20,000 bases of DNA from NCBI GenBank assembly GCA_049512315.1, contig JBEKXF010000016.1, positions 50,551-70,550 on the forward strand, read 5' to 3'. Shown here one piece after another: positions 579 through 19,672 of this stretch. This DNA is from Candidatus Aminicenantales bacterium (GTDB lineage Bacteria; Acidobacteriota; Aminicenantia; Aminicenantales; Saccharicenantaceae). The translations under genes were made by a program, and so were the position numbers. The notes below the pieces were generated by a model that saw nothing but the letters and a program-made list of their open reading frames with translations, ran no database searches and was not told the origin of the DNA. The first letter of the stretch is position 1; every line of letters starts with the position of its first letter.

Positions 579-620
579 GACAGACCTCCCTTTTGACACG
601 TCAAGGAATTTCCTTTTTTG

Positions 621-650
621 ATGATATCCCCGGCCGCGCGCCGGTGTCAA
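621..650 (-). promoter_or_regulatory. Putative sigma70 promoter for the MBL gene
   Basis: Minus strand TTGACA (650-645), 18 nt spacer, TATCAT (626-621). Confidence 0.6.
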
Positions 651-664
651 ACTCCCCGTAAAAT

Positions 665-702
665 AAAAAAGGGCGGACTGCCCGACCCGGGCATCCGCCC
701 TT
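665..702 (-). terminator. Intrinsic terminator of RRM gene 1 (repeat copy A)
   Basis: Minus strand AAGGGCGGATGCCCGGGTCGGGCAGTCCGCCC followed by TTTTTTATTTT, about 40 nt after the stop codon. Confidence 0.85.
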
Positions 703-741
703 GCGTTCGAACTAAGGTTGACCGCTAAGCTAAATCAGCGA

Positions 742-1041
742 TCAGAACCGGCCGCGGCCGCCGCCGAAGCCGCCTCTGCCGCCGCCGCCGCCGCCGGCCG
801 GGCGGGGCTGGGCTTCGTTGACCTTGAGGTTCCGGCCCTTGAGGTCCTTGCCGTTGAGACCGCTGATGGCCTTGACCGCCTCGTCCTTGTTCGGCATCTC
901 GACGAAGCCGAAGCCGCGCGGCTGGCCGGTCATCTTGTCCGTGATGATGGCCGCTTTCTCGACCGCCCCGAAGGCCTGGAAGGCCGCCCGGAGGTCGTCC
1001 TCGGTCACCGTGAAGGAAAGGTTGCCTACGTAGATGTTCAT
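742..1041 (-). CDS. RNA-binding protein, single RRM plus Gly/Arg-rich tail (99 aa), paralog 1
   Basis: MNIYVGNLSF (RNP2) ... RGFGFVEM (RNP1) ... GGGRGGFGGGRGRF. ATG at 1041 with AAAGGAG SD; the ORF-track N-terminal extension is not needed. Confidence 0.95.
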   Translation of the reverse strand: MNIYVGNLSFTVTEDDLRAAFQAFGAVEKAAIITDKMTGQPRGFGFVEMPNKDEAVKAISGLNGKDLKGRNLKVNEAQPRPAGGGGGGRGGFGGGRGRF

Positions 1042-1168
1042 ACTCGTCTCCTTTGACGAAGGGTCCGTCCGGGTGGCTTCCCCGACGCCCCGTCCCAAAA
1101 AATCGATCGCAATAAAGGAGAGGAGTATGTCGGCTGTTAGGGCCTCTGCCCTCTATACCTTTATCCGA
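1039..1168 (-). promoter_or_regulatory. Conserved structured 5' leader of RRM gene 1 (anti-SD, small hairpin, upstream box)
   Basis: 1114-1129 is a 15/16 inverted repeat of the SD+ATG region 1039-1054. Hairpin at 1139-1152 and box ACCTTTATCCGA at 1157-1168. All three elements recur upstream of paralog 2. Confidence 0.7.
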
Positions 1169-1202
1169 CCCGTGCCCCCTTAACGGGGGAATTTCACCCC
1201 AT

Positions 1203-1231
1203 AGAGTACCATAAAAGGCCGCCCTCGTAAA
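1203..1231 (-). promoter_or_regulatory. Putative sigma70 promoter of RRM gene 1
   Basis: Minus strand TTTACG (1231-1226), 17 nt spacer, TACTCT (1208-1203), with an extended -10 TG. Confidence 0.5.
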
Positions 1232-1329
1232 ATAAAAAAAGTAGTGGACGGCCCGACCCGGGCATTCGCTCTTGCGTTCGAATAGGGGTTGACCGGTAAG
1301 CTAAATCGGCGATCAGGGCCGGCCGCGGC
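1226..1329 (-). repeat. Degenerate copy (B) of the RRM stop region, 3' UTR and terminator
   Basis: cgtaaaataaaaaaagtagtggacggcccgacccgggcattcgctcttgcgttcgaataggggttgaccggtaagctaaatcggcgatcagggccggccgcggc aligns by eye to ~657-758 with scattered substitutions. Confidence 0.9.
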
Positions 1330-1338
1330 AGGAGGGGG

Positions 1339-1373
1339 AAAAAGAGGGGAACGCGATGCCTCGCGTTCCCCTC
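1339..1373 (-). terminator. Intrinsic terminator of the M16 peptidase operon
   Basis: Perfect 13-bp stem GAGGGGAACGCGA/TCGCGTTCCCCTC (1344-1373), 4-nt loop, then a T5 tract on the minus strand, 12 nt after the stop codon. Confidence 0.9.
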
Positions 1374-1385
1374 GAGAGGCATTCG

Positions 1386-2837
1386 CTATTTCGTCTTGGC
1401 CGGAGGAGGGGGCGGGATGGAGATATCGATCGTTTTCACCTGGCCCAGCGTGGACAAGGGCTTGTCGAAATCGGCGGCCTTGCCCACGACCAGGATCTGG
1501 ACCTGATCGGGCTTGAGGTACTTCTTGGCCACGCGCAGGACATCGGCCTTGGTGACCTTTTCCACACCTGATTTCACCTTTTCGGTGAAGTCCAGCGGAT
1601 ACCCGTAATAAGCGTAGGTGAGCATCCGGTTGATGATCTTGGCCCGGCTGTCGAAACGAAAGACAAAGGAGTTCAGATATTGGTCTTTGGCCTTGGCCAA
1701 TTCCGGATCGGTCACCTCCTCCTCCGCCATGCGCTTCATCTCCTTGAGCATGAGCTCGATGGCGTGGACCGTCGACTGGGACTTCGTCTGAGCGCCGCAG
1801 CTGAACGTTCCGGGGAAGTCCAGCCGCGAATCATAATCGCCCCAGACGCTGTAGGCCAGGCCTTCGTCCGTCCTGATCTTTTTGAACATCCGGTCGAAGG
1901 ACAGGATGGAATTCATGACGGTCAGGGCCGGAAAGTCCGGGTTGCTCATCAGGCCGCCGATATGGCCGAGCATGATATTGGACTGGTTGACATCCGGCTT
2001 ATCGATGTAGTTAACCGTGAACTTATCTTCGTAGGGCACGGCCGGCCAGGCCGGCACCGCGACCGAACCGGACTTCCAGCGCCCCAGAGTCTTGTTCAGC
2101 ACGGCCTTCAGGGCGGCGCTGTTAAAGTCGCCCCAGACGGCCAGGAGGGTGTTGTTGGGATAAAAATAGGCCCGGTAGAACTTGACCACGTCGTCACGGG
2201 TTATGGACCGGACCGTGGCGTACTCGGGCTGGAGCGCGTACGGCGAGTCCTGTCCATAGATCAGCTTGCTGTATTCGCGCGAGGTGATCCCGCCGATGTC
2301 ATCGTTGCGGCGCTGGATGAAGCTTTCGACCTCGATTCGAGCCAGGTCGATCTTATTTTGGGCAAAAGCGGGATTGGTCAGCATATCGGCCAGGATCTCC
2401 AGGACCCGGTCGATGTCCTCCTTGAGCGCCGACGCCGTGACCGTGCCCGAGGTCTGGTCGATGCCGGTTTCGATCGTGGCGGCCAAAGTCTCCAGCTCTT
2501 TGTCGATCTCGTCTCCGGTGCGCGTGGCGGTGCCGCCCGTGCGCAGGGCCGTGCCGGTCAGGCCTGCCAGGCCCACCTGAGCTGCCGGTTCGAAGACCGA
2601 ACCGGTGCGGACCATGGCTTTCAGGTCGACCGTGGGAAATTCATGATCCTCGACGAGGAAGACGGTCAGCCCGTTGGCCAGCTTGAATTGCTCGACCTTG
2701 GGCATGTGGATCGTGTTCAGGGGCGGGAACGAGAATTGATCCTTGGGATTCTTTTGGGCCGCGAGCGGTCCGCCCAGCAGAAGGAGGAGGACGGACAGTC
2801 CGGCCAGGGCCTTGAGAAAATGTTTGGGAATGTTCAT
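1386..2837 (-). CDS. M16B zinc peptidase family protein, non-catalytic-type subunit, with signal peptide
   Basis: Pitrilysin-like features (LANGLTVFLVEDH, RxDEGLAYSV Arg/Tyr motif) but no HxxEH. The probable start MNIPK at 2837 has an AAGGA SD. Confidence 0.88.
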   Translation of the reverse strand: MNIPKHFLKALAGLSVLLLLLGGPLAAQKNPKDQFSFPPLNTIHMPKVEQFKLANGLTVFLVEDHEFPTVDLKAMVRTGSVFEPAAQVGLAGLTGTALRTGGTATRTGDEIDKELETLAATIETGIDQTSGTVTASALKEDIDRVLEILADMLTNPAFAQNKIDLARIEVESFIQRRNDDIGGITSREYSKLIYGQDSPYALQPEYATVRSITRDDVVKFYRAYFYPNNTLLAVWGDFNSAALKAVLNKTLGRWKSGSVAVPAWPAVPYEDKFTVNYIDKPDVNQSNIMLGHIGGLMSNPDFPALTVMNSILSFDRMFKKIRTDEGLAYSVWGDYDSRLDFPGTFSCGAQTKSQSTVHAIELMLKEMKRMAEEEVTDPELAKAKDQYLNSFVFRFDSRAKIINRMLTYAYYGYPLDFTEKVKSGVEKVTKADVLRVAKKYLKPDQVQILVVGKAADFDKPLSTLGQVKTIDISIPPPPPAKTK

Positions 2838-2860
2838 CGTTTGGTCCTTTCTGCGGCGGT

Positions 2861-4366
2861 TCATTTCTGGGGAACGACCTCACCGATGACCCTGTGGGTC
2901 CGGATGAGGTAGGTGTTGGCCATGCGTTGGACGTCGGCGGTCGTGACGGCGTTGATGGCCGCGATCTGGTCGAAGGCCTGGTGCCAGTCGCCGAACACGA
3001 CGTCGGAATTGGCCAGGAACTCGGCCAGTCCAGCGTTGCTCTGCATCCGATCGATCAGCCCTTTGATGGCGGACCGTTTGTATTTGGTCAGCTCATCGGC
3101 CGTGACCGAATCCTTCTTGATCCGAGCGATCTCCTCGTCGATGAGGTTGAGGCATTCCTCGGAGGTGTGGCCGGGGGTCGAGGCCGCCAGGAAGGCGATC
3201 AGACTGGCCTGCTTCTGTCCGGGGAAGCCGTTAAAACCCTGGACGACCACGGCCACTTTCTTGCTCTTGACGAGAGATTCGTAGAGCCGGGACGAGCGGC
3301 CCTGGCCGAGGATATTGGCCAGCGCGTCCAGGGCTTCATTGTCCTTATGCGCCGCGGGGGGGCGGTGGTAGCCGAGGATAAGAATGGGCATCGACATGGC
3401 CGTGACCGTGGCCGACCGTTCGCCCCACTGTTCCGGCTCTGTGGTCCGGATGGGTTCGGGTTTGGGGCCGGAGGGGATGCGGCCGAAATACAGGTCCGCC
3501 AGGCGAAAGACCTCCTCGGGCTGGACATCGCCCACCACGGCCGCGGTCAGGTTGCCGGGGCTGTAGTATTTTTTGAAATAGTCCTCCACGTCCTGCCGGG
3601 TGATGGACAGCAGGTCGGACATGTGGCCGATGACGTGGTGATGGTAGGGGCTGGCCTTGAAGGCCGTGGCCAGGAAATCCTCGACCAGCCGGCCGACCGG
3701 CTGTGTTTCGACACTCAGCCGCCGCTCCTCCCGGATGACGCTCACCTCCTTGTAGAATTCGCGGAAGACCGGATGGAAAAAGCGGTCCGAGGTCAGGGAC
3801 ATCCAGAATTCGAGCCTGTTGGAGGGCAGACTGCTGATGTATTGGGTGGCGTCGAAGTTGGTGTAGGCGTTCAGGCCGGTATCGCCCTGTCGCATCAGCA
3901 GGTCGAAGCATTCGTTGTTGACCACGAAACTCTTGGCCTTGGCCTCCAGGTCGTCGAATTTTTTCTGCAGCTCCTGGACCTTGGCCGTGTCGGGCTGAAG
4001 CTTGGACTGCTCGGCTTTGAGGGCGGCGTGGGCCGAGTCCAATTGGGCCAGGACCTGCGATTCCTGTTCATAATTGGTCGTGCCCACGGTCTGGGTGCCC
4101 TTGAAAGCCATGTGTTCCAGGATGTGGGAGATCCCGGTGATGCCGTACGATTCGTTGGCCGAACCGACATCGGCATAGACATGGAAGGAAGCGACGGGTG
4201 CCTCATGGCGCTCGAGAACGATGAATTTCATGCCGTTGGCCAGGACGTGAGTCTTGACCCTGCTTTTCAGGGCGTCGAAGCTCTGGGCTTGGACGATCGC
4301 CGCCGCCATCAGGAACAGAACAAGAGAGAGACCGGATCGAAATCGAGGACGGGACCTCATCTGCAT
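2861..4366 (-). CDS. M16B zinc peptidase, catalytic subunit, with signal peptide
   Basis: Inverted zinc motif GISHILEHMAFKG, LNAYT and EVSVIREERR. The start MQMRS at 4366 is preceded by GAGGAGG. Confidence 0.92.
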   Translation of the reverse strand: MQMRSRPRFRSGLSLVLFLMAAAIVQAQSFDALKSRVKTHVLANGMKFIVLERHEAPVASFHVYADVGSANESYGITGISHILEHMAFKGTQTVGTTNYEQESQVLAQLDSAHAALKAEQSKLQPDTAKVQELQKKFDDLEAKAKSFVVNNECFDLLMRQGDTGLNAYTNFDATQYISSLPSNRLEFWMSLTSDRFFHPVFREFYKEVSVIREERRLSVETQPVGRLVEDFLATAFKASPYHHHVIGHMSDLLSITRQDVEDYFKKYYSPGNLTAAVVGDVQPEEVFRLADLYFGRIPSGPKPEPIRTTEPEQWGERSATVTAMSMPILILGYHRPPAAHKDNEALDALANILGQGRSSRLYESLVKSKKVAVVVQGFNGFPGQKQASLIAFLAASTPGHTSEECLNLIDEEIARIKKDSVTADELTKYKRSAIKGLIDRMQSNAGLAEFLANSDVVFGDWHQAFDQIAAINAVTTADVQRMANTYLIRTHRVIGEVVPQK

Positions 4367-4445
4367 AGAAACCTCCTCAAAAAATTTTCTTTGATAAATT
4401 ATGCGAAAATCATGGATAGGAACTGCGGCCCCCCAATACAAAATC

Positions 4446-4475
4446 ATGATATTCTCAGTTGGGAGTCGGTGTCAA
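4446..4475 (-). promoter_or_regulatory. Putative sigma70 promoter of the M16 operon
   Basis: Minus strand TTGACA (4475-4470), 18 nt spacer, TATCAT (4451-4446). Confidence 0.6.
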
Positions 4476-4740
4476 CCTCTTTGCTTCTCGGCACCTTCAG
4501 GGTGATCGCCGCACCAGATGCGGCAATTCTCGATGAGCGTCCCACAGAGATGATATTCGCAACCGCGGCTCCGCCTTAAGGACTCGGGAATCATGAATTG
4601 ACTGAGGCATCGAAAGAGTCGATAAAGTGAGCTCTCTCGGTTCTTTCATGAAGCGGGAGACAGGATCACGAGAACCAAGGATCGGATCCGAGCCGCGTGC
4701 CGGGATGCCGTTTGGTCCGGGTATTCGAAGGGAGAATGAC

Positions 4741-5185
4741 ATGATAGAGAACGATGACAAGAGCGAATCCGTATTCCAAAAAATGAAGGATAAGGCCAAG
4801 GGGGGTTCAGACCGGCATCGCCGGGAAGATCTCCAAGGCCTCCGAAGCCGGTTGGACAAAACTCAAGGAAACGATCGACGACGTGGACGAGGGCCTGCCT
4901 CTCATTCGTGAACTCGGATACTCGGTTGAAAGCATCCAGATCGGCGTCGGGCTGATTCCGGACATTGTCATCGAGATCAGCGGATTGTCCAAGACGATGG
5001 ACAAAAAAGCCTATCATCGGATCGTTGAGGAAAAGAAGGACAAGAAGCTCCTTTGCAGCGTCCTCAAAACAGTTCAATCCGCGTCAGGGTTGCACGACAA
5101 GATCCATATCGCAGGAATGAAGTCCGATACCGCGGCCATCACTCTCGACATGCCGCCGAAGATCAATCTGAAGTTCAAGAAATAA
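4741..5185 (+). pseudogene. Hypothetical protein (~147 aa) split by a +1 frameshift in a G6 run
   Basis: ATG 4741 with GGGAG SD gives MIENDDKSESVFQKMKDKAK. Removing one G from 4800-4805 joins it to GVQTGIAGKISKASEAGWTKLKETIDDVDEGLPLIRELGY...KFKK* (ORF 4883-5185). Confidence 0.65.
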
Positions 5186-5240: not shown

Positions 5241-5269
5241 ATAGGAATTTCCTTTTTCGCCGTCGCACG
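5241..5269 (-). mobile_element. IS91/ISCR oriIS-like end motif (orphan copy)
   Basis: Minus strand CGTGCGACGGCGAAAAAGGAAATTCCTAT is near-identical to the motif at 18638-18666 that terminates the IS91-like remnant. Confidence 0.55.
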
Positions 5270-5334
5270 TGTACGCCGACCCTTTGGCTCAGAACTGTAA
5301 ATGACCGCTTCGCCAGGCCGGGAAAGCTCTCTCG

Positions 5335-5529
5335 GAAATAAAAAAGGGCGGACTGCCCTCCCCGGGCATCCGCCCTTACTTGCGAATAAAGGTCGACCGC
5401 TAGGCTAGATCAGCGATCAAAGCCGGCCGCCGCCGAAGCCGCTCGTCCGGAGACGATCGGTGCGGGGCCGGGTTTCGTTGACCGTCAGGCTGCGACACTT
5501 GAGGTCCTTGCCGTTCAGTCCGGAGATGG
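5335..5529 (-). pseudogene. 3' fragment of an RRM gene with its 3' UTR and terminator (repeat copy C)
   Basis: Encodes ISGLNGKDLKCRSLTVNETRPRTDRLRTSGFGGGRL* (5527-5417), matching the C-terminus of paralog 2 with in-frame deletions. It lacks RNP1/RNP2. The terminator hairpin is at 5340-5377. Confidence 0.9.
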
Positions 5530-5571
5530 TCGTGCGCTTCTCCATAGCCAATTGGTGATATACTTTGAAAT

Positions 5572-6390
5572 ATGGATCCCTCAGAAATAATACCTATCAT
5601 CATTGTTGAGAACTTAACTAAACATTTTGGTGACTTAAAGGCGGTGGACCATATCTCTTTTTCTGTGCAGAGAGGGGAGAGATTTGCCCTTCTTGGTCCG
5701 AACGGGGCCGGGAAAACCACGACCATTAAGATGCTCATCACCTTGCTCAAACCGACGAGCGGTGAAGGGATCATTGCCGGCCACAATTTCGTCACCCAGC
5801 CGGCCGAGGTGCGTCGTTCCATCGGCTACGTGCCGCAGCTGATTTCCGTGGACGGCACCCTGACGGCCTATGAGAACCTGATGCTCATGGCCCGTCTTTA
5901 CGATGTTCCGGCTCATGAAAGAAAGGATAGAGTCGAAGCGGCCCTGTCGTTCCTGAAATTAGAAAAATTCGCCCATTCCCTGGTGCGGACATTTTCGGGC
6001 GGCATGATCAGGAAGCTCGAGGTCGGGCAGGCCATTCTCCATCGGCCCCAGGTGCTGTTCTTGGACGAGCCCACGTCAGGACTCGATCCCGTGGCCAAAA
6101 ACGATGTCTGGGAGAATCTCATGGAGTTGAAGACGAAATATCAGACGACGGTTTTTTTTACCACTCATAATATGGAAGAAGCCGACGAAGTCTCCAGCCG
6201 GGTGGCGATCATGAATCACGGACGTCTGGCTGTCATCGGCACAGCCGAGGAACTCAAAGAGAAAACCGGCCAGGGGAAGACCCTGGAGGATGCCTTTATC
6301 TTTTTTACGGGTGACGCGCTCGAGGACACCACGCCCGCCCGTTTTGGAGAGATCCGGCGGCAACGACAGAATGAACGAAAGCTGGGATAA
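5572..6390 (+). CDS. ABC transporter ATP-binding protein, DrrA/NodI-like
   Basis: Walker A GPNGAGKTT, Q-loop GYVPQ, signature FSGG, Walker B LFLDEPTSGLD, H-loop TTHNMEEAD. Confidence 0.95.
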   Translation: MDPSEIIPIIIVENLTKHFGDLKAVDHISFSVQRGERFALLGPNGAGKTTTIKMLITLLKPTSGEGIIAGHNFVTQPAEVRRSIGYVPQLISVDGTLTAYENLMLMARLYDVPAHERKDRVEAALSFLKLEKFAHSLVRTFSGGMIRKLEVGQAILHRPQVLFLDEPTSGLDPVAKNDVWENLMELKTKYQTTVFFTTHNMEEADEVSSRVAIMNHGRLAVIGTAEELKEKTGQGKTLEDAFIFFTGDALEDTTPARFGEIRRQRQNERKLG

Positions 6391-6395
6391 AAAAC

Positions 6396-7172
6396 ATGAT
6401 GAAATATGTCTTCGAAAGTTTGAAAAAAGCTCTCGTCATAGCCGGGACGGAGACACGAAAACTCCTCCATGATCCAACCGAACTTGTGTCCCGCGCCGTT
6501 CAGCCCATCCTCTGGCTCGGGATCTTCGGCGAGGCTTTGAGCAAGGTCCGGGCCATACCGACCGGAGGAGTCACATATCTCCAGTTCATCACTCCGGGCA
6601 TTCTGACGCAGTCGGTGACCTTCGTGGCGATCTTTTACGGACTTTATATCATCATGGATAGGGACGCCGGCATTCTCCAGAAATTCCTGGTGACACCCAC
6701 CCCTCGATTGGCCTTGGTCTGGGGCAAGATGCTCTCCGCGACGGTCCGGGGGCTCAGCCAGGCCCTGATCGTTTTCATCTTTACTTTTATATTAGGGATC
6801 AAGCTCCACATCGGTTTTTGGACGATCCCTGGGGTCATGGTGATCGTCCTTCTCGGGGCAAGCTTTTTCACCGGCCTATCGATGGTCGTGGCGTCCATCG
6901 TCAAAACCCGGGAACGTTTCATGGGCATAGGTCAGGTCATTACCCTGCCGCTCTTTTTTGCCTCCAATGCCATCTATCCAATTCATATCATGCCTCAGTG
7001 GCTCCAGGTGGTGGCCAAGATCAATCCCTTGAGCTATATGGTCGAAGGCCTCCGGTCTTTATTGGTCAGCGGCGTGACGTCCGGGGTTCTGGTCGATATC
7101 GGTATTCTGCTGGCGGCCACTTTGGTCATTTCTTCGATCAGCGCGTACATGTATCCCAAGGTGGTGATCTAA
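6396..7172 (+). CDS. ABC-2 type transporter permease, DrrB-like
   Basis: About six hydrophobic segments, YLQFITPGI, DRDAGILQKFLVTP, PLFFASNAIYP..MPQWLQ..AKINPLSY. Confidence 0.93.
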   Translation: MMKYVFESLKKALVIAGTETRKLLHDPTELVSRAVQPILWLGIFGEALSKVRAIPTGGVTYLQFITPGILTQSVTFVAIFYGLYIIMDRDAGILQKFLVTPTPRLALVWGKMLSATVRGLSQALIVFIFTFILGIKLHIGFWTIPGVMVIVLLGASFFTGLSMVVASIVKTRERFMGIGQVITLPLFFASNAIYPIHIMPQWLQVVAKINPLSYMVEGLRSLLVSGVTSGVLVDIGILLAATLVISSISAYMYPKVVI

Positions 7173-7204
7173 GGGCGGACTGCCCAACCCGGGCATCCGC
7201 CCTT
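7171..7204. repeat. Isolated copy (D) of the RRM terminator hairpin
   Basis: AAGGGCGGACTGCCCAACCCGGGCATCCGCCCTT is identical to 19053-19086 and overlaps the permease stop codon. Confidence 0.92.
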
Positions 7205-13400: not shown

Positions 13401-16163
13401 GCCCACGCCTACTGGCGCCTCAAAGGACTGGCCGTGGACCTCGTGATCTGGAATGAGGACCACGTCGGTTACCGGCAACTCCTCAACGAACAAATCATGG
13501 GACTCATTGCCGCCGGCCTCGAAGCCAACGTGACGGATCGACCCGGGGGCATCTTTGTGAGACCTGCAGACCAGATATCGAATGAGGACCGCATCCTTTT
13601 CCAGACCGTCGCCCGGGCCATCCTCGCCGACAGTCGCGGAACGCTGGCCGACCAGATCAACCGTCGCGGCCTTGGGGACGTAACCGTGCCGCGCCTCACA
13701 TTGCCCCGAATCCGCCGCGCCGAGGCCCCGGTAGCGGCCGCGTTGCCTCGCCACGATCTGATCTTCTTCAACGGGCTGGGAGGCTTCACTCCCGATGGGC
13801 GCGAGTACGTCATGACGACCGCGCCCGGGCAGGTGACGCCGGCACCATGGGTGAATGTGCTGGCGAACCCGCACTTCGGAACCGTCATCTCGGAGAGCGG
13901 CCTGGCCTGCACCTGGAGCGAGAATGCTCACGAGTTCCGCCTCACGACCAACGACCCCGTGAGCGATTCCAGCGGAGAAGCCTTTTACCTCCGTGACGAA
14001 GAGAGGGGCCACTTCTGGTCCCCCACGCCGCTGCCCGGCCGTGGCTCGCAGCCGTACGTCAGCCGGCACGGATTCGGATACAGTGTCTTCGAGCACACGG
14101 AACGTGGCATCCGCTCCGAGCTGTGGGTTTACGTGGCCTTGGACGCGCCGATCAAGTTCGCGGTGTTGAAAGTGCGCAACGAGTGCGGCCGATCCCGCCG
14201 GCTCTCGGCCACGGGATACATGGAGTGGGTGCTGGGAGACCTGCGGCCGAAATCGGCCTTGCACGTGGCCACCGAAGTTGACCCCGGGAGCGGGGCGCTC
14301 TTCGCCCGGAACCCCTACAACACGGAGTTCGCCGACCGGGTGGCCTTTTTCGACGTGGACGATGCGGTTCGGACCGTCAGCGGCGACCGGACGGAGTTCA
14401 TTGGGCGTAACGGCACGCTCCAGAGTCCGGCGGCCATGACTCGGTCGCGGCTTTCCGGCAAGGTGGGGCCCGCTTTGGATCCCTGCGCCGCGATCCAGGT
14501 TCCCTTTGAGCTGGCCGACGGGCAAGAGCGTGAGATCATCTTCACGCTCGGCGTAGGACGGGACGCCGATGATGCCCGCAACCTGGCCTACCGCTTCCGG
14601 GGATCTGCGGCGGCGCGGGGCGCGCTCGAAGAGGTGTGGCATTACTGGAATCACACGCTCGGCGCCGTGCAGGTGGAAACGCCGGACCCGTCTCTCAACG
14701 TGCTGACCAATGGCTGGCTCTTGTACCAGACTCTGGCCTGCCGTCTTTGGGCACGGAGCGGATACTACCAGCCGGGGGGTGCCTTCGGTTTCCGCGACCA
14801 ATTGCAGGACGGGATGGCGCTCGTCCACGCCGCGCCACACCTTTTGCGCGAGCATTTACTCCGCTGCGCCGCCCGTCAGTTCCCGGAGGGAGATGTCCAG
14901 CATTGGTGGCATCCCCCCTCGGGCCGGGGCGTGCGGACCCACTGTTCTGATGATTACCTATGGTTGCCGCTGGCGACATGTCGCTACGTTCTCAGCACAG
15001 GGGACACCGGAGTGTTGGATGATCCCATCCACTTTATCGAAGGCCGCCCGGTCAACACGGAGGAGGACTCGTATTACGATCTACCGAGCCGGTCGGATGA
15101 GGTCGCCACTCTCTACGAGCACTGTCGGCGAGCCATCCTGAGGGGGCTCAGATTTGGGGAGCACGGCCTGCCGCTCATCGGCTCTGGAGATTGGAACGAC
15201 AGCATGAATATTGTGGGCGAACACGGCAAGGGCGAAAGCGTTTGGTTGGGGTTTTTCCTCTACGAAGTGCTCATGCAGTTCACGGAGGTTGCCCGTATCC
15301 GGGGTGATCTATCTTTCGTCGAACTTTGCCAGAGGGAGGCGGCTCAAGTGCGCCGGAATATCGAGCAGAATGGCTGGGATGGCGAGTGGTACCGCCGGGC
15401 TTACTTCGACGACGGCTCGCCCCTGGGGTCGGCGAGTAATCCCGAATGTCAGATTGATTCGATTGCCCAGAGCTGGTCAGTTCTATCCGGAGCGGGCGAT
15501 GCCGAGCGTTCGCGCATGGCCATGGAAGCGGTGGATCAGCGCCTCGTTCGCCGGGACGATGAGTTGATCCAACTTTTGGACCCCCCGTTCGACAAGTCGA
15601 CTTTGAATCCCGGCTATATCAAAGGGTACGTCCCGGGCGTCAGAGAAAATGGCGGTCAATATACTCAGGGGGCGGTCTGGGCGGCGATGGCCTTCGCTGC
15701 CCTTAACGACAGTCGGCGCGCCTGGGAACTGTTGGCCATGATCAACCCGGTGAACCATGCGAGATCTCCGGAGAAGATTGCGACCTACAAAGTAGAACCG
15801 TACGTCGCCTCGGCCGACGTCTATGCACTTTCGCCGCACACGGGCCGCGGGGGATGGACGTGGTACACGGCCTCGGCCGGTTGGATGTACCGGCTGATCG
15901 TGGAAGCGCTCCTGGGGCTGAGGCTGGAAGTGGACAAACTGCGTTTTGCCCCCTGCCTCCCGGCGGATTGGCCGGCATTCAAGGTGCACTACCGGTATCG
16001 CGAGACGGTCTACCATATCGTTGTTCTGCAAACGCGTGCCGGAAATGGCGAGATGAGCGTGACCGTGGATGGCGCCGAGCGACCCGACCAGGCGATTCCC
16101 CTTGTGGACGACCACCAGGAACACTCGGTTGAGGTGAGAGTACCCGCTGCACACAACAGCTAG
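7446..16163 (+). CDS. ndvB: Cyclic beta-1,2-glucan synthase (Cgs/NdvB/ChvB): GT84 synthase, membrane segments, glucoamylase-like domain and C-terminal GH94 phosphorylase region
   Basis: ~2900 aa. Motifs include EWLLDNFYLIEEQI, WMGYERKRGKL, YVITLDTDT, SHDLVEG, RRHRWIRGDWQ, YYDLLASEARL, SWSGSMFEYLMP, GFRDQLQD, GDWND, RENGGQYT. The ORF is open from 7404; TTG 7446 after AAGGAG is the likelier start. Confidence 0.93.
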   Translation: MKVDSQTIRRTLPHLWARLRGNGLAQKFAVTEPPLRSELFSSDQMKQHGKALAESHTLSLGGAPDRLLARLAENEGVLIGTCDLLTAAVQTNRRIAPAGEWLLDNFYLIEEQIRTAKRHLPKGYSQELPRLLNGPSAGLPRVYDLALETISHGDGRFDLESLSSFVAAYQTVTVLKLGEIWAIPIMLRLALIENLRRVGARIAADRIDRNRADYWADQLTKTAEKDPKSLILVIADMARSSPPMVSSFVAELARRLQGQSPALALPLTWIEQRLSESGLTIEQLVQSENQQQAADQVSISNSIGSLRFLGAMDWREFVETMSVVEQVLREDPGGVYGKMDFATRDRYRHVVEKIARSSLLSESEVARKAVQFAREGAAKKGSDERTAHVGYYLIDKGGRQLERTAEVGRSIPEVLRRMSDRFPLLLYLGTIALITAIFTGSLLAKAHASGLHDWQVVLIGFPLLLGASHLAVALVNWLATLVATPRLLPRMDFSGGIPPESRSLVVIPTMLTSAQNIEDLVEALEVRFLANRDENLHFGLLTDFRDAREETIPEDEPLLQRAQKRIEELNEKYKSAKGDTFFLFHRPRRWNPRERLWMGYERKRGKLEELNSLLRGGSKDRFSLIVGDIAVLANVKYVITLDTDTQLPRDSAWQFVGAMAHPLNRARYDEDKQRIGEGYGILQPRMAVSLPGMNRSRYARLCGSEPGIDPYTRIVSDVYQDVFGEGSFIGKGIYDVDVFEGVLKGRFPENRILSHDLVEGCYARAGLLSDVLLYEEYPSRYSVDVNRRHRWIRGDWQIARWLLPGVPGPERRRRKNPLSGLSRWKILDNLRRSLVSAALTLLLLLGWTVLSPPWLWTLAAIGTILIPPWMASFLALFQKPGDVLLRQHLAAAVRSAGRHSAQAAFTLACLPYEAFFSLDAIGRTVWRMWVTHRRLLEWNPSGSPDRKSRTDLAASWRTMWIAPVLATAGVLYLTLSRPAALGVAGPILGLWFASPAIEWWISRPLARRETRLTADQILFLRKLSRKTWAFFEIFVGPEDHWLPPDNYQEHSVPVVRHRTSPTNMGLALLANLSAYDFGYIPAGQLIERTANAFHTMEVLERHRGHFYNWYDTQSLKPLPPLYVSTVDSGNLAGHLLTLRPGLLALPDRRIMEGRWFDGLSDTLRILVDAAGEAAPARLAQLQKDLASPSASRPTTLAGARLCLDRLATAVAEMVDSLEADAESQAMGWARALARQCQGTLDELTFLAPWTLLPTSPDRPNNFRGLDEIPTLRELAGFEGEWLPALGDRLGSEATPEENERLSELRRLITQASRRAKARIAAIERLARQSGELADMEYDFLFDKARHLLAIGYNVGERRRDSGYYDLLASEARLSTFVAIAQGKLPQESWFALGRLLTTAGGKPVLLSWSGSMFEYLMPLLVMPTYEDTLLDQTYRAAVETQVEYGRHRGVPWGSSESGFNMVDVHLNYQYRAFGVPGLGLKRGLADDLVIAPYASALALMVAPEEACLNLQRLAAEGLEGEYGFYEAIDYTPSRLPRGQSSAMVRSFMAHHEGMSFLSLAYLLLDRPMQKRFESDPLFQATMLLLQERVPKATAFYWHTAELSGVRTTSNGSETPVRVFSSPDTPIPEVQLLSNGRYHVMITNAGGGYSRWKDIAVTRWREDSTCDNWGAFCYLRDVATGEFWSTAYQPTLKGPEKYEAIFSEARVEFRRRDHEFDTHTEIAVSPEDDIELRRITLTNRSRTRRAIDVTSYAEVVLASPAADALHPVFSNLFVQTEILHPQRAILCTRRPRSLDEHTPWMFHLLAVHGAEIGEISYETDRLRFIGRGNTTANPQAMSGAAALSGSEGSVLDPIVAIRYRITLDPEETATINIVSGIGDTRDVCLGLIGKYRDRRLADRVFDLAWSHSQVFLRQLNATEGDAQLYGRLASSVIYANSSLRADPGLLIQNRRGQSGLWGYSISGDLPIVLLRIGDPANIELVRQLVQAHAYWRLKGLAVDLVIWNEDHVGYRQLLNEQIMGLIAAGLEANVTDRPGGIFVRPADQISNEDRILFQTVARAILADSRGTLADQINRRGLGDVTVPRLTLPRIRRAEAPVAAALPRHDLIFFNGLGGFTPDGREYVMTTAPGQVTPAPWVNVLANPHFGTVISESGLACTWSENAHEFRLTTNDPVSDSSGEAFYLRDEERGHFWSPTPLPGRGSQPYVSRHGFGYSVFEHTERGIRSELWVYVALDAPIKFAVLKVRNECGRSRRLSATGYMEWVLGDLRPKSALHVATEVDPGSGALFARNPYNTEFADRVAFFDVDDAVRTVSGDRTEFIGRNGTLQSPAAMTRSRLSGKVGPALDPCAAIQVPFELADGQEREIIFTLGVGRDADDARNLAYRFRGSAAARGALEEVWHYWNHTLGAVQVETPDPSLNVLTNGWLLYQTLACRLWARSGYYQPGGAFGFRDQLQDGMALVHAAPHLLREHLLRCAARQFPEGDVQHWWHPPSGRGVRTHCSDDYLWLPLATCRYVLSTGDTGVLDDPIHFIEGRPVNTEEDSYYDLPSRSDEVATLYEHCRRAILRGLRFGEHGLPLIGSGDWNDSMNIVGEHGKGESVWLGFFLYEVLMQFTEVARIRGDLSFVELCQREAAQVRRNIEQNGWDGEWYRRAYFDDGSPLGSASNPECQIDSIAQSWSVLSGAGDAERSRMAMEAVDQRLVRRDDELIQLLDPPFDKSTLNPGYIKGYVPGVRENGGQYTQGAVWAAMAFAALNDSRRAWELLAMINPVNHARSPEKIATYKVEPYVASADVYALSPHTGRGGWTWYTASAGWMYRLIVEALLGLRLEVDKLRFAPCLPADWPAFKVHYRYRETVYHIVVLQTRAGNGEMSVTVDGAERPDQAIPLVDDHQEHSVEVRVPAAHNS

Positions 16164-16205
16164 GAAATTTCTTTTTTTCGGTATCAAACTCCCCGAAAAT
16201 AAAAT
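16161..16205 (-). repeat. Partial repeat copy (E): oriIS-like motif plus terminator-distal flank
   Basis: taggaaatttctttttttcg..tcaaactccccgaaaataaaa resembles 604-619 plus 647-668 (aggaatttcctttttt...tcaaactccccgtaaaataaaa). It fills the whole gap between two convergent genes. Confidence 0.7.
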
Positions 16206-16457
16206 TTATTTGTTCTCCTGCTTCTCACTGCCTTTTGTACAAAAGTAAAAATTCTTTAGTTTCATTTTGCTCTTCACAGGGCAGGCTCCGCAGATATATC
16301 CCTTCTCTTTGATGATGCACTTGCTCTTGCCCATGATCAGGCAAAAAGCTTTTTCATGAGTTGCACCTTGCTTGCTGCAATCAACATAGCTAGGACAGCC
16401 TTCACAAATACACAATTTAATGATTTCTGTTTTTTTTATATCAGGTTTTGTTGGCAT
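16206..16457 (-). CDS. Small Cys-rich protein, DUF2769-like
   Basis: CICEGCPSYVDC...AFC..GKSKC.....ICGACPV......YFC pattern, GAGGGAG SD, AT-rich. Confidence 0.75.
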   Translation of the reverse strand: MPTKPDIKKTEIIKLCICEGCPSYVDCSKQGATHEKAFCLIMGKSKCIIKEKGYICGACPVKSKMKLKNFYFCTKGSEKQENK

Positions 16458-16480
16458 TTCTTTTATTATTATTCTCCCTC

Positions 16481-17410
16481 CTAATCTGAGTCATAGTCAT
16501 ATTTCCAGTCAGTTCGTTTCGTATTTTTCACCAGCTTTGCAGCATGCATAACATTCTCGGCGATCAATTTCGTTGAGCCTTCATAACATTCTCCCAGGAC
16601 TATTTTCTTGTCTGCAAAGGTTGAGTTGCATACAGATGACATGGCATACATGTTGCTGAATGGCGGGAATAACATGCCAAAATGATTGAAGGTCATGAAT
16701 AAGTTTGAGATGACCATTGAAGCGCCTTCTTCATGGCCTGTGACGATGACTCCCGCAACCTTGCCGATGAATCTCCTCAGCATACCGCTCCCAGGCACAC
16801 TATTGTCTGCAGTGAGCTCAACGAACTTCATATGCTTGATATTAAGCTCCTTATCCTTTGGAACCTTTGGGTTGGCTGGCTTCAGGCTTCCATCCAGACT
16901 TATGCACCTGTCCATAAAAGCTTTCAGTGGTGTTGAAACGTTAAAATTATTCACCGGTGTTGCAAGGATCAAACAATCTGCTCCCAGAATCTTGTCATAT
17001 AGAATGTTGCTCATGTCATCTGCTTTGGGTGTGCCCTTAGGGTAGCAGGAGCAGTAAAAGTGGCATTGCGTGTTGGTTGTCGAGTAGCACGCCTTGCAAT
17101 GTTCTATCCGAAACTCCCTGAGTTTGATGAGCTCTGTTTCTGCTCCGAGTTTTTTGCAGTGCTCAAGACAGACTTTGAGAAGCTCTTCAGAATTTGATTC
17201 TTCCTGGGCCATGTCATACTTGTCCCTTGCAGAGCCAGATATGCCGAGAACCTTAATTTTCTTAGTCTTGCTCTTCTTCTTGTCCATCGACTCGGCTTCT
17301 TTGATTGTTTCCCTCTGGATTTGCTTAAAGCGTCCTAATTTTTTAGCATCTACTTTAAGAATCTTCATCAGTTCCTGGTCAGACAACTTCTTGCTTGCCA
17401 TTTTATTCAT
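16481..17410 (-). CDS. Flavodoxin-fold protein, NADPH-dependent FMN reductase / iron-sulfur flavoprotein family
   Basis: KVLGISGSAR FMN-binding loop, Cys cluster CKACYSTTNTQCHFYCSC, DDM, ATPV, LKAFMDR, GKVAGVIVTG. Confidence 0.85.
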   Translation of the reverse strand: MNKMASKKLSDQELMKILKVDAKKLGRFKQIQRETIKEAESMDKKKSKTKKIKVLGISGSARDKYDMAQEESNSEELLKVCLEHCKKLGAETELIKLREFRIEHCKACYSTTNTQCHFYCSCYPKGTPKADDMSNILYDKILGADCLILATPVNNFNVSTPLKAFMDRCISLDGSLKPANPKVPKDKELNIKHMKFVELTADNSVPGSGMLRRFIGKVAGVIVTGHEEGASMVISNLFMTFNHFGMLFPPFSNMYAMSSVCNSTFADKKIVLGECYEGSTKLIAENVMHAAKLVKNTKRTDWKYDYDSD

Positions 17411-17637
17411 ACTCCCCTCCCTCCTCGACCGCCGGCAAAATCCGGCTCGAAAAGACTAACAACAATGACTCACAAAATAATTTTCTAACATACGAAGCGA
17501 TGATGACCGCTAGTATTTTTCTCACGACGAACTCTCCTTGCGGCAGAGAATACCGATATTCCTATGCATTATAGAGGGTCTGGCCCTGGCCTACCAGGGG
17601 CGGGGACCGAAGGGACGACGAGACCCGATCTCTCGAC

Positions 17638-17985
17638 CTAGGACGCGGACTTCTCTAAATACTCCTTCAAGGCGACCGCGTTGTTGTATTTCGTTTCCTT
17701 GGCCCCGTAGACGAGCGTCACCGTCCCGCGCTTGGCCTCCGCGAGAAGACCGACGACCTCCTTCCGACCCTTCAATTCCCTAAAGTCACGCCGCTTGAAT
17801 TCGCCCCATTTGTCAGGTTCGTGCCCGAACCATTTTCTCAGGCCGGTCGTGGGCGAGACCTCCTTCGTCCAGAGGTCGATCTTGGCCTTGTCCTTGGTCA
17901 GACCGCGCGGCCAGAGCCTGTCCACCAGCACCCGAAGCCCGTCGCCGGCTTTGGGCTCATCGTACGCCCTCTTGATCTTGATCAT
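17638..17985 (-). CDS. DUF488 (YeaO-like) protein
   Basis: IKIKRAYD..DGLRVLVDRLWPRG..K..IDLW.KEVSP..LRKWFGH...VTLVYGAKE..NNAVALKEYL, GAGGAG SD. Confidence 0.9.
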   Translation of the reverse strand: MIKIKRAYDEPKAGDGLRVLVDRLWPRGLTKDKAKIDLWTKEVSPTTGLRKWFGHEPDKWGEFKRRDFRELKGRKEVVGLLAEAKRGTVTLVYGAKETKYNNAVALKEYLEKSAS

Positions 17986-17997
17986 GGCGCCGTCTCC

Positions 17998-18237
17998 TCA
18001 ACCGATGTCCAGAGTCCCGATCTCGGGGATGCGTTCGAGAACTTCCGATCCATGGGGCGCCATGGATTCCAGGTCCGCTGTCAGGTCCTTTCCGGCCTGA
18101 TGCAGCCCTTGATGATCGCCGTTCGCCCAGAGGGAGCTCTTGGTGACGTCGTAGACCCTTCCTTTGTAGGCGACGAAGGCGGGCGCCCCGTTCTCCCCGT
18201 TGTTCTTAGCCAGGTCATCTTTGCCGAAAGTTCTCAT
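17998..18237 (-). CDS. Cytochrome b5-like heme/steroid-binding domain protein
   Basis: LAKNNGENG..AFVAYKGRVYDVT.S.LW.NG.H...H.AGKDLT...APHG. The start overlaps the ferredoxin stop (TGATG coupling). Confidence 0.88.
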   Translation of the reverse strand: MRTFGKDDLAKNNGENGAPAFVAYKGRVYDVTKSSLWANGDHQGLHQAGKDLTADLESMAPHGSEVLERIPEIGTLDIG

Positions 18238-18473
18238 CAGATGAGTTTCTCCCCTTCATTGAAGACGTGAATGCAGGTCACCGGACAGCTTTCGGCGGCC
18301 GCGATGTTGCATTTCACGTCGTTCATTTCCAGCTCTTCGTTCTCGCCGACCCCGGTCGAGTCGATGAGATGAGAGAGTCCGTCGCCGGCCATCTCCCAAA
18401 ATTCGGGACAGATGGCGACGCAATTCTCGCAGGCGATGCACAGGGGTCTTTCGATCTCGACCTTGTAACTCAT
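18237..18473 (-). CDS. Small single-cluster ferredoxin (78 aa)
   Basis: CIACENCVAICPE ... AAAESCPVTCIHV, start MSYKV at 18473. Confidence 0.88.
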   Translation of the reverse strand: MSYKVEIERPLCIACENCVAICPEFWEMAGDGLSHLIDSTGVGENEELEMNDVKCNIAAAESCPVTCIHVFNEGEKLI

Positions 18474-18632
18474 TGCAAGGCCATAGAGAAGCATCCGGCA
18501 TGCGCGGCGCCGAGAAGCTCCTCGGGATTCGTCCCCGGCCCCTGCTCGAACCGGGAGGCGAACGAGTACGGGCCCTCGTAGGCCCCCCGGCCCACTTTCA
18601 TGCGGCCCCGTCCGTCCTTGAGCGAGCCTTCC
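18474..18632 (-). pseudogene. osmC: Internal fragment of an OsmC-family peroxiredoxin gene
   Basis: EGSLKDGRG...YSFASRFEQGPGTNPEELLGAAHAGCFSMAL matches the OsmC signature. The N-terminus is replaced by the oriIS-like motif and the C-terminus is cut at the ferredoxin start. Confidence 0.85.
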
Positions 18633-18637
18633 GATTG

Positions 18638-18993
18638 ATAGGAATTTCCTTTTTTAGCGTAGCACGGAATCCCCCGCTTCAGCTTCTGAATCAACCCGTT
18701 CCCCACACAAAATAAGGGTATCCCGGCCCCGGCCATGCGTCAAGAACTCAAGATCCAGGGGGCCGGAGCTCTTCCTCGATCATCCCCAGGGCGACGGGAA
18801 CACGGCCCGCCTTCCTGACTTTCCCCCGGTGCGAGTTGGCATAGAACCCGTAATACCGGACCATGACCTGGCCCTTGTCGGGGATGTGGGAAGTGACCCG
18901 GGCGACCTGCCTACCGGCAGGCAGGTGAACTCCAGATGATCCCTCGTCTCCAGCTCGGCCGCCTCACGGCCCCAGCGATAGACCGCGGCCTCC
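18638..18993 (-). mobile_element. IS91-family (rolling-circle, HUH/Y2) transposase remnant with oriIS-like end
   Basis: Minus strand AVYRWGREAAELETRDHLEF[I]ARVTSHIPDKGQVMVRYYGFYANSHRGKVRK (18748-18993) has the H-I-P..VRYYG(F/L)YAN motif of IS91 transposases. It is followed by AAAAAAGGAAATTCCTAT at 18655-18638. Confidence 0.8.
18906..18925. repeat. 20-bp palindromic mini-element CCTGCCTACCGGCAGGCAGG inserted in the transposase remnant
   Basis: Near-perfect palindrome. Its exact removal restores TTC-ATC-GCC (F-I-A) and the reading frame. Confidence 0.8.
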
Positions 18994-19005
18994 CATCACA
19001 AAATG

Positions 19006-19035
19006 ATGTTATTCCCTGCCGTGAATCAATGTCAA
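19006..19035 (-). promoter_or_regulatory. Putative sigma70 promoter just beyond the RRM2 terminator
   Basis: Minus strand TTGACA (19035-19030), 18 nt spacer, TAACAT (19011-19006), in the same position relative to the hairpin as the promoter at 621-650. Confidence 0.5.
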
Positions 19036-19048
19036 ACTCCGTGAAAAT

Positions 19049-19086
19049 AAAAAAGGGCGGACTGCCCAACCCGGGCATCCGCCCTT
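19049..19086 (-). terminator. Intrinsic terminator of RRM gene 2 (repeat copy F), possibly also ending the rrn transcript
   Basis: Minus strand AAGGGCGGATGCCCGGGTTGGGCAGTCCGCCC followed by TTTTTTATTTT. Confidence 0.85.
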
Positions 19087-19125
19087 ACTTGCGAATAAAG
19101 GTTGACCGCTAAATCAGATCAGCGA

Positions 19126-19440
19126 TCAGAACCGGCCGCGGCCGCCGCCGAAGCCACCCCTGCCGCCGGCGCTGCCGCCGCTCGTCCGGGGACGATCGGT
19201 GCGGGGCCGGGCTTCGTTGACCGTCAGGCTGCGACCCTTGAGGTCCTTGCCGTTCAGTCCGGAGATGGCCTTATCGGCCTCTTCCTTGTTCGGCATCTCA
19301 ACGAAGCCGAAGCCGCGCGACTCACCAGAGAACTTGTCCTTGATGATGGACGCGGTCTGAACCGCCCCGAAGGCCTCGAAGGCTTCCTTGAGGTCCTGCT
19401 CGGTAGCGGTCCGGGAAATGTTTCCAACGTAGATGTTCAT
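19126..19440 (-). CDS. RNA-binding protein, single RRM plus Gly/Arg-rich tail (104 aa), paralog 2
   Basis: MNIYVGNISR (RNP2) ... RGFGFVEM (RNP1) ... GGRGGFGGGRGRF. ATG at 19440 with AAGGAG SD. The ORF-track extension runs through the 5S rRNA and is spurious. Confidence 0.95.
   Translation of the reverse strand: MNIYVGNISRTATEQDLKEAFEAFGAVQTASIIKDKFSGESRGFGFVEMPNKEEADKAISGLNGKDLKGRSLTVNEARPRTDRPRTSGGSAGGRGGFGGGRGRF

Positions 19441-19554: not shown

Positions 19555-19672
<118 letters not shown>

Follow-up and report, generated by a model that had tools for sequence, protein, structure and literature searches.

Elements of the IS91 family insert beside a target tetranucleotide (CTTG, GTTC or similar), which is found next to oriIS, and they produce no target-site duplication. 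Because no such duplication is left, gene capture by IS91 and ISCR elements is hard to trace, and to our knowledge nearly all known cases come from resistance and virulence settings in Proteobacteria. For class 1 integrons linked to ISCR1, the ISCR review by Toleman is said to propose a model in which circle formation is combined with recombination. Here we describe a locus beside the ribosomal RNA operon (rrn) of a Candidatus Aminicenantales bacterium, in which 3' ends of a gene for an RRM-type RNA-binding protein, together with its terminator, alternate with unrelated gene blocks; with a probability of roughly two in three we consider it the fossil of a rolling-circle capture array of the IS91/ISCR type. 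The analysed DNA (the window, 20,000 nt) is C16:50551-70550, the last 20 kb of a 70,550-base contig from a bin of 77 contigs and 3,548,237 bases. Contigs are designated by C-numbers, this genome is G000, and G003 and G006 are two of its congeners.

In PMC3575428 the ISCR1-linked integrons are described as a truncated 3' conserved segment (3'-CS), ISCR1, a variable region and duplications of the 3'-CS; background for this comparison came also from PMC6218425. Our locus resembles these complex integrons in having an IS91-family insertion sequence (IS) behind a conserved segment, truncated or duplicated copies of that segment, and non-cassette cargo past oriIS. According to PMC13181058, IS91 and IS1294 overrun their left end (terIS) in 1-14% of events, and the DNA next to it is then mobilised as well. 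For IS801, PMC3189936 reports that 290, 1017 or 1431 nt of a single upstream gene were taken along, and it also describes miniature right-end derivatives.

RRM gene tails and the IS91-family remnants behind them

Repeat search and BLASTN against the whole genome recovered six pieces of the RRM 3' end in the window, all in one orientation, just where the original prediction had placed them: A (660-807 by repeat search), B (1231-1378), C (5335-5534), D (7171-7217), E (16179-16204) and F (19044-19273). The kinship proposed for them was reproduced too. Piece B is closer to A (85% by BLAST over 107 nt, 66% ungapped) than to F (79%), piece C is closer to F (81% over 224 nt) than to A (77%), and the 34-nt hairpin of D matches F at 34/34 and A at 33/34 positions, while piece E, which has no hairpin, is 85% identical to the distal flank of A.

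Behind four of these six pieces (A, C, E and F) lie decayed elements of the IS91 family (Y2 HUH, rolling-circle), one per piece. The transposase fragment preserved behind F matches residues 284-349 of an intact relative (428 aa) at 68% identity, and the roughly 120 nt that follow its stop codon align to the right ends of intact elements, including a TTGACA-N17-TAT..T box and the end AAAAAAGGAAATTCCTATC. The distal flank of A aligns with the right-end box and then jumps to the terminus; E is shorter still. Four same-strand copies of the right terminus AAAAAGGAAATTCC follow A, C, E and F, with TAT as the next letters in two of the four. As a motif (GGAATTTCCTTTTT, plus strand of the window) it gave six matches with at most two mismatches against 0.18 expected. 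These represent five sites, those at 16163 and 16164 overlapping each other; four of them belong to the plus strand and follow A, C, E and F at a distance of 25-400 nt, and the fifth (7428-7441, minus strand, two mismatches) is unrelated. Genome-wide, three of nine exact AAGGAAATTCC sites lie downstream of a terminator module of the same strand, at a distance of no more than 400 nt. Judged by these alignments, what had been called the distal flank of the repeat is largely IS91-family element.

The rolling-circle mechanism of IS91/ISCR type, one of two precedents invoked in the original prediction, is thus backed by remnants behind 4/6 pieces. Its description of the locus as integrase-free has to be given up: a wrecked transposase of its own is still present in the array. 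The accompanying claim that the window contains no integrase or recombinase gene stands for intact genes and fails for the Y2_Tnp fragment listed in Table 1. The array is probably transposase-built, though no intact recombinase gene is found there.

Elsewhere in the genome transposase stubs occur on 10 contigs and right ends number 14 at E <= 0.01; with only stubs present, this IS family is extinct here. On C4 the 45 N-terminal codons of a transposase come after a module and are fused with the matching right end. The same contig has a block of about 1.1 kb (C4:509-1598), made up of an IS stub, its terminus and the DNA next to them, that agrees at 89% with G002:C31:22523-23607, which lies directly behind rrn-RRM F there, and the distal part of the block (C4:844-1601) is found at 87% in G009, a different genus (C5 ~234486-235253, near IS right ends). 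A TTGACA-N18-TATCAT box before the M16 peptidase gene M16a (4446-4475) was tried as one more right end and rejected; its likeness to the box of A is at consensus level only (local score 23), and it has no match to the IS right-end profile.

The part common to the pieces, referred to here as the terminator module, is made up of a first hairpin, in the 3' untranslated region (UTR) and reaching across the stop codon, a terminator hairpin rich in G+C, and a T-run. In F it folds at -40.2 kcal/mol (z -6.1). C has kept both hairpins, D only the second, and in B none is foldable (z +0.3). Since the fold of B is lost and the neighbouring M16 operon has a terminator of its own, B was not retained as a terminator. 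Piece D adjoins the stop codon of the ABC-2 permease gene, and its hairpin begins at that very base. The hairpin across the RRM stop codon (UGAUCGCUGAUC...GCGGUCA, 10 bp) is conserved at 19103-19128, 5393-5420 and 655-745, being retained also in the truncated copy C, and could be a regulatory or processing structure.

A module profile (nhmmer) built from the 10 BLAST copies returned, at E <= 0.01, only those 10 in the whole bin, plus one reverse-strand echo of a palindromic copy. Six copies lie in 23 kb beside rrn (C16:46731-69666), two on C4, one on C20 and one on C34. Both C4 copies are in the first 2 kb of that contig and attached to truncated RRM coding sequence, and 8/10 copies form two clusters (C16:46.7-69.7 kb and C4:0.5-1.8 kb). 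The scatter expected of a dispersed terminator repeat, of the kind known as REP or BIME (repetitive extragenic palindromes, bacterial interspersed mosaic elements), was not seen genome-wide; BLASTN-short and the profile gave these 10 copies and no others, and this candidate was rejected. Reverse-transcribed (processed) copies of the RRM mRNA were also considered, for the common 3' end and the variable 5' ends, and dropped because homology continues beyond the T-run into flank and IS sequence.

A pattern scan gave 173 stretches encoding relatives of the transposase; the best 79 loci, most of them from genomes labelled Candidatus Aminicenantes, were examined, and 46 right-end termini were obtained from 54 profile matches. 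Intact relatives have 423-428 aa and, as is characteristic of the IS91 family, combine an N-terminal zinc-binding domain, Zn_Tnp_IS91 (PF14319, E 1.6e-21), with a Y2 HUH domain, Y2_Tnp (PF04986, E 3.8e-22), both domains being present in the intact 428-aa relative and in three others; the motif NFHPHxH is invariant in 4 transposase sequences. The right end is conserved over 7 aligned copies and in the 46 termini, and intact copies in relatives carry a terminus that matches the remnants of the window. The module was tried as a general left end of this lineage and rejected, there being no module match at E <= 1 at the four loci with complete transposase and matches at 2/79 further loci; an RRM gene is nearby in 2/79 further transposase loci.

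Two copies in G024 are informative about how this lineage moves. The copy on C2 sits behind an intact Asp/Glu racemase gene. The copy on C6 shares with it the last 288 nt of that upstream gene plus the intergenic stretch (347 nt, 98.6%); over the remainder of the element the two agree at 99.85%, and they have the same right terminus. Read from this comparison of sequences, the pair shows one-ended transposition with carry-over of the left flank in this IS lineage. Relative to the C2 copy (L053), the C6 copy (L069) has a 183-bp deletion that removes the transposase start, so that any further movement would need the other copy.

The neighbourhood of the window pieces is widespread. The order 23S-5S-spacer-RRM-terminator is conserved in 11/11 relatives' loci fetched (G001, G002, G003, G004, G006, G009, G018, G021, G024, G025 and G039), and the block of RRM F was matched in 36/41 genomes searched, often with several matches per locus. 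A same-strand IS remnant follows this order in 8/11 loci (G001, G002, G004, G006, G009, G024, G025 and G039; in G001 as a weak right-end match only, E 0.007) and was not found in those of G003, G018 and G021. The stubs vary among genomes and are still 50-72% identical to the intact G024 copy. In all 11 loci the RRM gene stands directly 3' of 5S with a conserved spacer, and G039 has a tandem of three. In the window, prediction placed no terminator-like site in the stretch from 5S to the RRM gene, so the gene may be co-transcribed with rrn. A degenerate 5S-like stretch, spacer and the first 13 RRM codons occur on C48 (900-1250 and 3787-3924), with an IS91-type transposase stub 2.5 kb away; by its sequence this stretch resembles the remains of a further copy of the rrn flank.

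Cargo between IS termini and partial modules

Read in the sense of the RRM genes, the locus runs rrn-5S-RRM F-module-IS stub-terminus, redox cargo, piece E, the gene of a cyclic beta-1,2-glucan synthase-like protein (Cgs), piece D, the ABC-2 pair, piece C, the hypothetical and two M16 genes, piece B, spacer-RRM A-module-IS stub-terminus, a metallo-beta-lactamase-fold (MBL) gene with a 116-aa open reading frame (ORF) and an outer-membrane protein (OMP) gene, one more module copy, and conserved flank. The internal pieces had been said to stand at borders of unrelated modules, and Pfam assignments (M16 twice, a hypothetical gene, ABC/ABC-2, GH94-type Cgs, redox genes) bear this out. The last block reaches beyond the window, where the 116-aa ORF and a gene for an outer-membrane beta-barrel protein of 1046 aa belong to it, up to the module copy -3819..-3745 (C16:46731-46806).

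G003 aligns with this genome in four stretches only: up to -3913, at 666-1262 (RRM A), at 5547-7172 (ABC-2 pair) and at 19044-20000 (RRM F and rrn). All six resulting synteny breaks lie in a module copy or not more than about 100 nt from one. G003 lacks the segment -3913..666 and has one module there against two here, which flank the MBL gene, the 116-aa ORF and the OMP gene; likewise it has one module where B and C stand here with the M16 operon between them. The Cgs-like gene and the block of hypothetical and M16 genes are absent from the locus of G003, and the redox block has no match in it. Each of the four cargo blocks missing from that locus lies between an IS terminus and a partial module, the shared blocks (RRM A, ABC-2 pair) being outside such brackets. 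Hence the unit (IS remnant-terminus / lineage-specific cargo / partial RRM module) is met four times in and just beyond the window. The cargo reaches 8.8 kb, includes multi-gene operons and is encoded on both strands.

Resident blocks behave differently from cargo in the comparison with congeners. That of RRM A is 90% identical to G003 in nucleotides and 97% in protein; the ABC/ABC-2 block is 87% identical to G003 in nucleotides and, in protein, 89-93% to G003 and 90-94% to G006. Homology to G003 and G006 ends exactly at the TAA of the ABC-2 gene, past which all three genomes differ. The best matches in 5 congeners are 63% for M16a and 44% for the outer-membrane protein, whereas flanking orthologues are 87-97% identical to G003; with this low identity and the deviating G+C content the cargo looks acquired. 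Relatives carry different cargo at the rrn-RRM locus. A variable cargo array downstream of rrn, as originally proposed, is therefore what the six G003 breaks and the other cargo of relatives show.

The G+C content is 41-45% in four bins (16401-17600), 48% at 16001-16400 and about 60% elsewhere. The low-GC island (16206-17600, DUF2769 and FMN reductase-like genes) begins exactly where the hairpin of piece E should be and is for this reason probably a later, separate acquisition. At the other border of the same cargo, beside the IS terminus, an ORF (18470-18640) matches only the first 22 positions of OsmC (E 1.6e-4, below cut-off) and is, as far as its sequence tells, probably a truncated gene.

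Contigs from public peat metagenome runs (X1-X5, compared as contigs only) were used to follow the array in other assemblies. A contig of run X4 bridges 1033/1034-5390 with 0 differences, and X5 bridges the same interval with one 199-nt gap (4875-5073, in the hypothetical gene), which is a well-supported strain deletion; in X3 two separate pieces span 1033-4858. At 18632, a few bases past the IS terminus, there are contig breaks in X1, X3 and X4, and an X3 contig joins the end of the ABC-2 gene, via 45 other letters, to a diverged copy of 4733-4858, which hints at strain-level rearrangement at array borders. Two further joints, 17395>18988 in X5 (possible absence of 17396-18987, weak) and 18632>18760 in X1, have short sides of only 25 and 29 letters, respectively, and neither counts as a shown variant. 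X5 has no cover at 18010-18676, which is not evidence of absence.

Table 1. Features of the window, listed from the rrn end; cargo labels X1-X5 are independent of the metagenome run labels.
Feature	Position	Strand	Evidence or remark
23S rRNA 3' end	19705-20000	-	Rfam 281.7 bits; contig ends inside 23S
5S rRNA	19555-19671	-	Rfam 109.2 bits
5S-RRM spacer	19441-19554	-	order 23S-5S-spacer-RRM
RRM gene F, intact	19126-19440	-	104 aa; Pfam RRM_1 E 5.3e-24
Terminator module F	19030-19116	-	nhmmer 81 bits
Decayed IS91-family element behind F	18637-19035	-	box, Y2 fragment and right end
TTGACA-N18-TAACAT box behind F	19006-19035	-	promoter-like match 10/12
Y2 transposase fragment, 71 aa	18751-18963	-	PF04986 positions 146-180, 26.7 bits (curated cut-off 20.9)
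IS right end behind F	18637-18760	-	profile E 1.4e-23; terminus AAAAAAGGAAATTCCTATC covers motif match 18641-18654
Cargo X1: OsmC-like stub, 4Fe-4S ferredoxin, cytochrome b5-like, DUF488, low-GC FMN reductase and DUF2769	16206-18636	-	Pfam
Piece E: T-run, short flank, IS right terminus AAAAAAAGAAATTTCC; no hairpin	16163-16205	-	85% to A flank; local alignment to G024 and own-F right ends
Cargo X2: 2919-aa GH94-type Cgs-like gene	7404-16163	+	GH94 supersandwich E 2e-170; GH94 catalytic E 5e-119
Piece D: 3' UTR stub and terminator hairpin, T-run missing	7171-7217	-	fold -29.6 kcal/mol, z -3.0
Resident block: ABC ATPase and ABC-2 permease	5572-7172	+	Pfam; common to congeners
Piece C, whole	5244-5534	-	RRM fragment, module C and IS remnant
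RRM fragment of C, 5'-truncated, ~residues 54-101	5390-5534	-	tblastn 69% over 48 aa
Terminator module C	5320-5410	-	nhmmer 79 bits; fold z -3.95
IS remnant of C (~85 nt), terminus AAAAAGGAAATTCCTAT	5244-5257 (terminus)	-	motif match; aligns to own-F right end
Cargo X4: 143-aa hypothetical and two M16 peptidase genes	1344-5077	-	Pfam
Terminator of M16 operon	1344-1373	-	fold -27.8 kcal/mol, z -4.8
Piece B: RRM stop-codon stub and decayed terminator module	1220-1329	-	nhmmer 65 bits
5S-RRM spacer homologue	1108-1168	-	upstream of RRM A in resident block
RRM gene A, intact	742-1041	-	99 aa plus stop; part of resident block 742-1168
Terminator module A	642-735	-	nhmmer 85 bits
Miniature IS remnant behind A	605-735 (with module A)	-	aligns to G024 right end
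TTGACA-N18-TATCAT box behind A	621-650	-	homologous to IS right-end box; promoter-like match 11/12
IS terminus AAAAAAGGAAATTCC behind A	605-618	-	motif match
Cargo X5, start: metallo-beta-lactamase-fold gene	3-581	-	Pfam

How the array may have formed

One can assume that an element of the lineage common in Candidatus Aminicenantes once immediately followed the terminator of the 5S-linked RRM gene, sharing the strand of the gene and turning its left (terminating) end towards it. Rolling-circle transposition would proceed from the right end (oriIS) leftwards, and in one-ended events, when termination at the left end failed, a variable left flank would be taken along: the terminator, the RRM 3' end and at times the spacer and part of 5S. 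The outcome would be 5'-truncated RRM pieces with a common 3' end and with the element behind each of them. Units landing beside other genes would read through those genes, and the circular products may have re-entered resident RRM/terminator copies by recombination in the shared module. The pattern left by such entries would be (RRM piece-terminator-IS-oriIS / cargo / partial RRM module), to be compared with ISCR1 and the 3'-CS of class 1 integrons, and all transposase genes of this genome would have decayed to stubs afterwards. The spread of RRM pieces by one-ended transposition, the entry of cargo as circles and the order of events are the parts of this scheme that we infer.

Several observations weigh against such an origin. 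The genome contains no intact IS91-family element, the single PF04986 match above cut-off being a fragment, so that movement cannot be demonstrated in it. Behind 6/10 modules (pieces B and D, C4-1, C20, C34 and the copy at -3819) no IS terminus was found. The left end (terIS) of the lineage is undefined, in contrast to the well defined and conserved right end; it is not fixed because both G024 copies include carried-along flank. The bases that follow ...CCTATC vary (AATC, CTAC, TTGA, AAAC, CCTC, TTTG and others) and do not fit the CTTG or GTTC of IS91; a lineage-specific target may be hidden, the exact terminus being uncertain by a few bases. The RRM pieces end at ten different 5' points, where no consistent tetranucleotide was seen by eye; only C4-1 ends beside GAAC in the source gene. 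The crossovers that can be placed fall in about 18 identical bases at the border of hairpin and T-run, which is short for RecA. With regard to G003, a deletion there by recombination between two modules would give the identical two-genome picture, and its single module at junction 2 is without the 145-nt RRM stub of piece C, for which reason G003 is not a clean empty site at this junction. Finally, PMC3189936 ascribes most natural IS801 fragments to reorganisation and not to one-ended transposition.

A tentative and rather unlikely variant is that the IS91 lineage recognises the RRM terminator hairpin as such, as a surrogate terIS or as a docking or cleavage site at the hairpin/T-run border. 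Four junctions fall exactly on that border, namely the left one of E, the right one of D and both inferred crossovers around the MBL/OMP cargo. Four short pieces start 12-30 nt before the hairpin, beside GTTC or CGAC, a place corresponding to that of the terIS cleavage sites of the IS91 family relative to their subterminal palindrome. The varied stubs behind rrn-5S-RRM in relatives, given their identity to the intact copy, also look too well preserved for one order-old insertion. Recognition of the hairpin would imply repeated arrivals in different Aminicenantes genera, the rrn flank serving as landing pad and capture platform. The hairpin is, however, absent from the four complete transposase loci, and the module is matched in only 2/79 further ones.

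The capture of cargo by rolling circle becomes superfluous if the repeats provide mere homology for ordinary or microhomology recombination among dispersed units and DNA of relatives. Such shuffling would need a separate process that makes 5'-truncated RRM pieces and sets each of them before an IS, and the strict polarity of IS terminus, cargo and partial module, four times on one strand, is a prediction of circle integration and not of free shuffling. In its favour are the position of all six own/G003 breaks in module copies, the location of inferred crossovers in short identical stretches at the hairpin/T-run border, the presence elsewhere in this genome (C4) of the block found behind RRM F in G002, the strong conservation of the rrn flank, which offers an anchor for replacement by transformation, and the preference of the IS801 study (PMC3189936) for IS fragments as recombination substrates. 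On balance we consider this explanation improbable.

Tandem duplication with subsequent decay is quite improbable as well. It supposes that the 5S-linked RRM gene was duplicated, that deletions and insertions trimmed the copies, that terminators were selected, and that the IS remnants are bystanders or were copied along. RRM A and F are indeed diverged whole-gene paralogues, spacer copy included, and both occur in G003, so the duplication is old. The three tandem RRM genes of G039 belong here too, as do pairs of RRM-block matches a few hundred bases apart in G040 and G032 and fragments of the 5' side (own C48, G003 28131-28241, partial 5S copies in G006). What duplication leaves unexplained is the same-strand IS terminus 25-400 nt behind four window pieces and one on C4, the truncated pieces on unlinked C4, C20 and C34, and the constant bracketing of cargo by IS terminus and partial module; the loss of B as a terminator does not fit the selection that it supposes. 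Either process, duplication or plain recombination, possibly accounts for part of the history beside the capture by an IS91-family element.

The second precedent of the original prediction, an att-like site in the RRM 3' end, leads to serial integrase-borne islands whose integrases have since been lost. Direct repeats of a gene 3' end at the borders, with the intact gene promoter-proximal and displaced fragments distal, are what such islands leave. Yet no tyrosine or serine recombinase domain was found by Pfam in 18 ORFs of the window and 75 ORFs around related sites (own C16:30551-50550, C4:1-20000 and G003 C11:36000-75000), the repeat ends differ in every copy, with ten different 5' ends and hence no common core, the cargo is made up of ordinary metabolic genes and lacks other island functions, and the IS91 remnants explain the flank that this model leaves unexplained. 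We therefore judge it very improbable and drop the tRNA-island-style att site; the earlier interpretation of the array was, overall, partly right. Chimeric assembly across repeats is equally hard to believe, even for a 77-contig bin in whose repeats public contigs break (733-884 and 5390), since the copies, only 66-89% alike, are too diverged to collapse, contigs of other studies bridge 1033/1034-5390, and G003 independently has RRM A, spacer and module in matching order.

Comparison with known capture systems

Integrons have an IntI integrase, an attI site and cassettes that each end in an attC. An integron was rejected as a description of the locus: no integrase was found in the 18 ORFs of the window and the 75 ORFs around related sites, and the cargo blocks reach 8.8 kb, include multi-gene operons and lie on both strands. 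Islands at tRNA and tmRNA genes share with it the direct repeats of a gene 3' end that border blocks beside a conserved RNA locus; unlike them, the array has no integrase, no common att core and repeats of variable length. Helitrons, as presented in PMC4778049, are likewise HUH rolling-circle elements, with an end hairpin taking part in termination and with capture of gene fragments by read-through. They are eukaryotic, encode a Rep/helicase protein and capture at the 3' end, whereas here a bacterial Y2 transposase is involved and capture is on the left (terIS) side.

Closer are IS801, IS91 and IS1294, which have the same combination of Zn_Tnp_IS91 and Y2_Tnp in the transposase. The ends of IS91-family elements, oriIS and terIS, are unlike and have no terminal inverted repeats; those of the present lineage would be unlike too. 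The variable left flank of one gene carried by IS801 (290/1017/1431 nt) has its counterpart in the 288-nt racemase tail of G024, and the miniature right-end derivatives of IS801 in the window pieces A and E. The differences are that flanking bases here miss the published tetranucleotides, that the left end is undefined, and that movement was read from sequence comparison.

If built by such transposition, the series of 5'-truncated tails of one gene would be a readable natural record of one-ended events, and the same process is a candidate explanation for the hypervariable rrn flank in the Aminicenantes group. Short repeats of the "terminator plus flank" kind can be all that is left of a rolling-circle element that has died out, and in the intact relatives the ends and termination signals are open to testing.

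The closest likeness is to ISCR1-linked integrons. It is a likeness of architecture, and it extends to an outward-facing promoter-like box near the oriIS end, which both ISCR1 and the window element possess. The repeated segment here is, however, the chromosomal RRM 3' end with its terminator beside rrn and not the qacEdelta1/sul1 3'-CS; the cargo comprises metabolic and envelope genes of an environmental lineage and not resistance genes; neither integron integrase nor attC is present, and every transposase of this genome has decayed. Among the papers searched, none named both "Aminicenantes" and "IS91". The array would thus be a further member of the IS91/ISCR capture type, in a lineage and setting for which we found no precedent in print: an ISCR-like architecture beside the rRNA operon, in the chromosome of an uncultured lineage that lives in peat and is labelled Candidatus Aminicenantes, with the tail of a gene for a housekeeping RNA-binding protein in the role of the integron 3'-CS.

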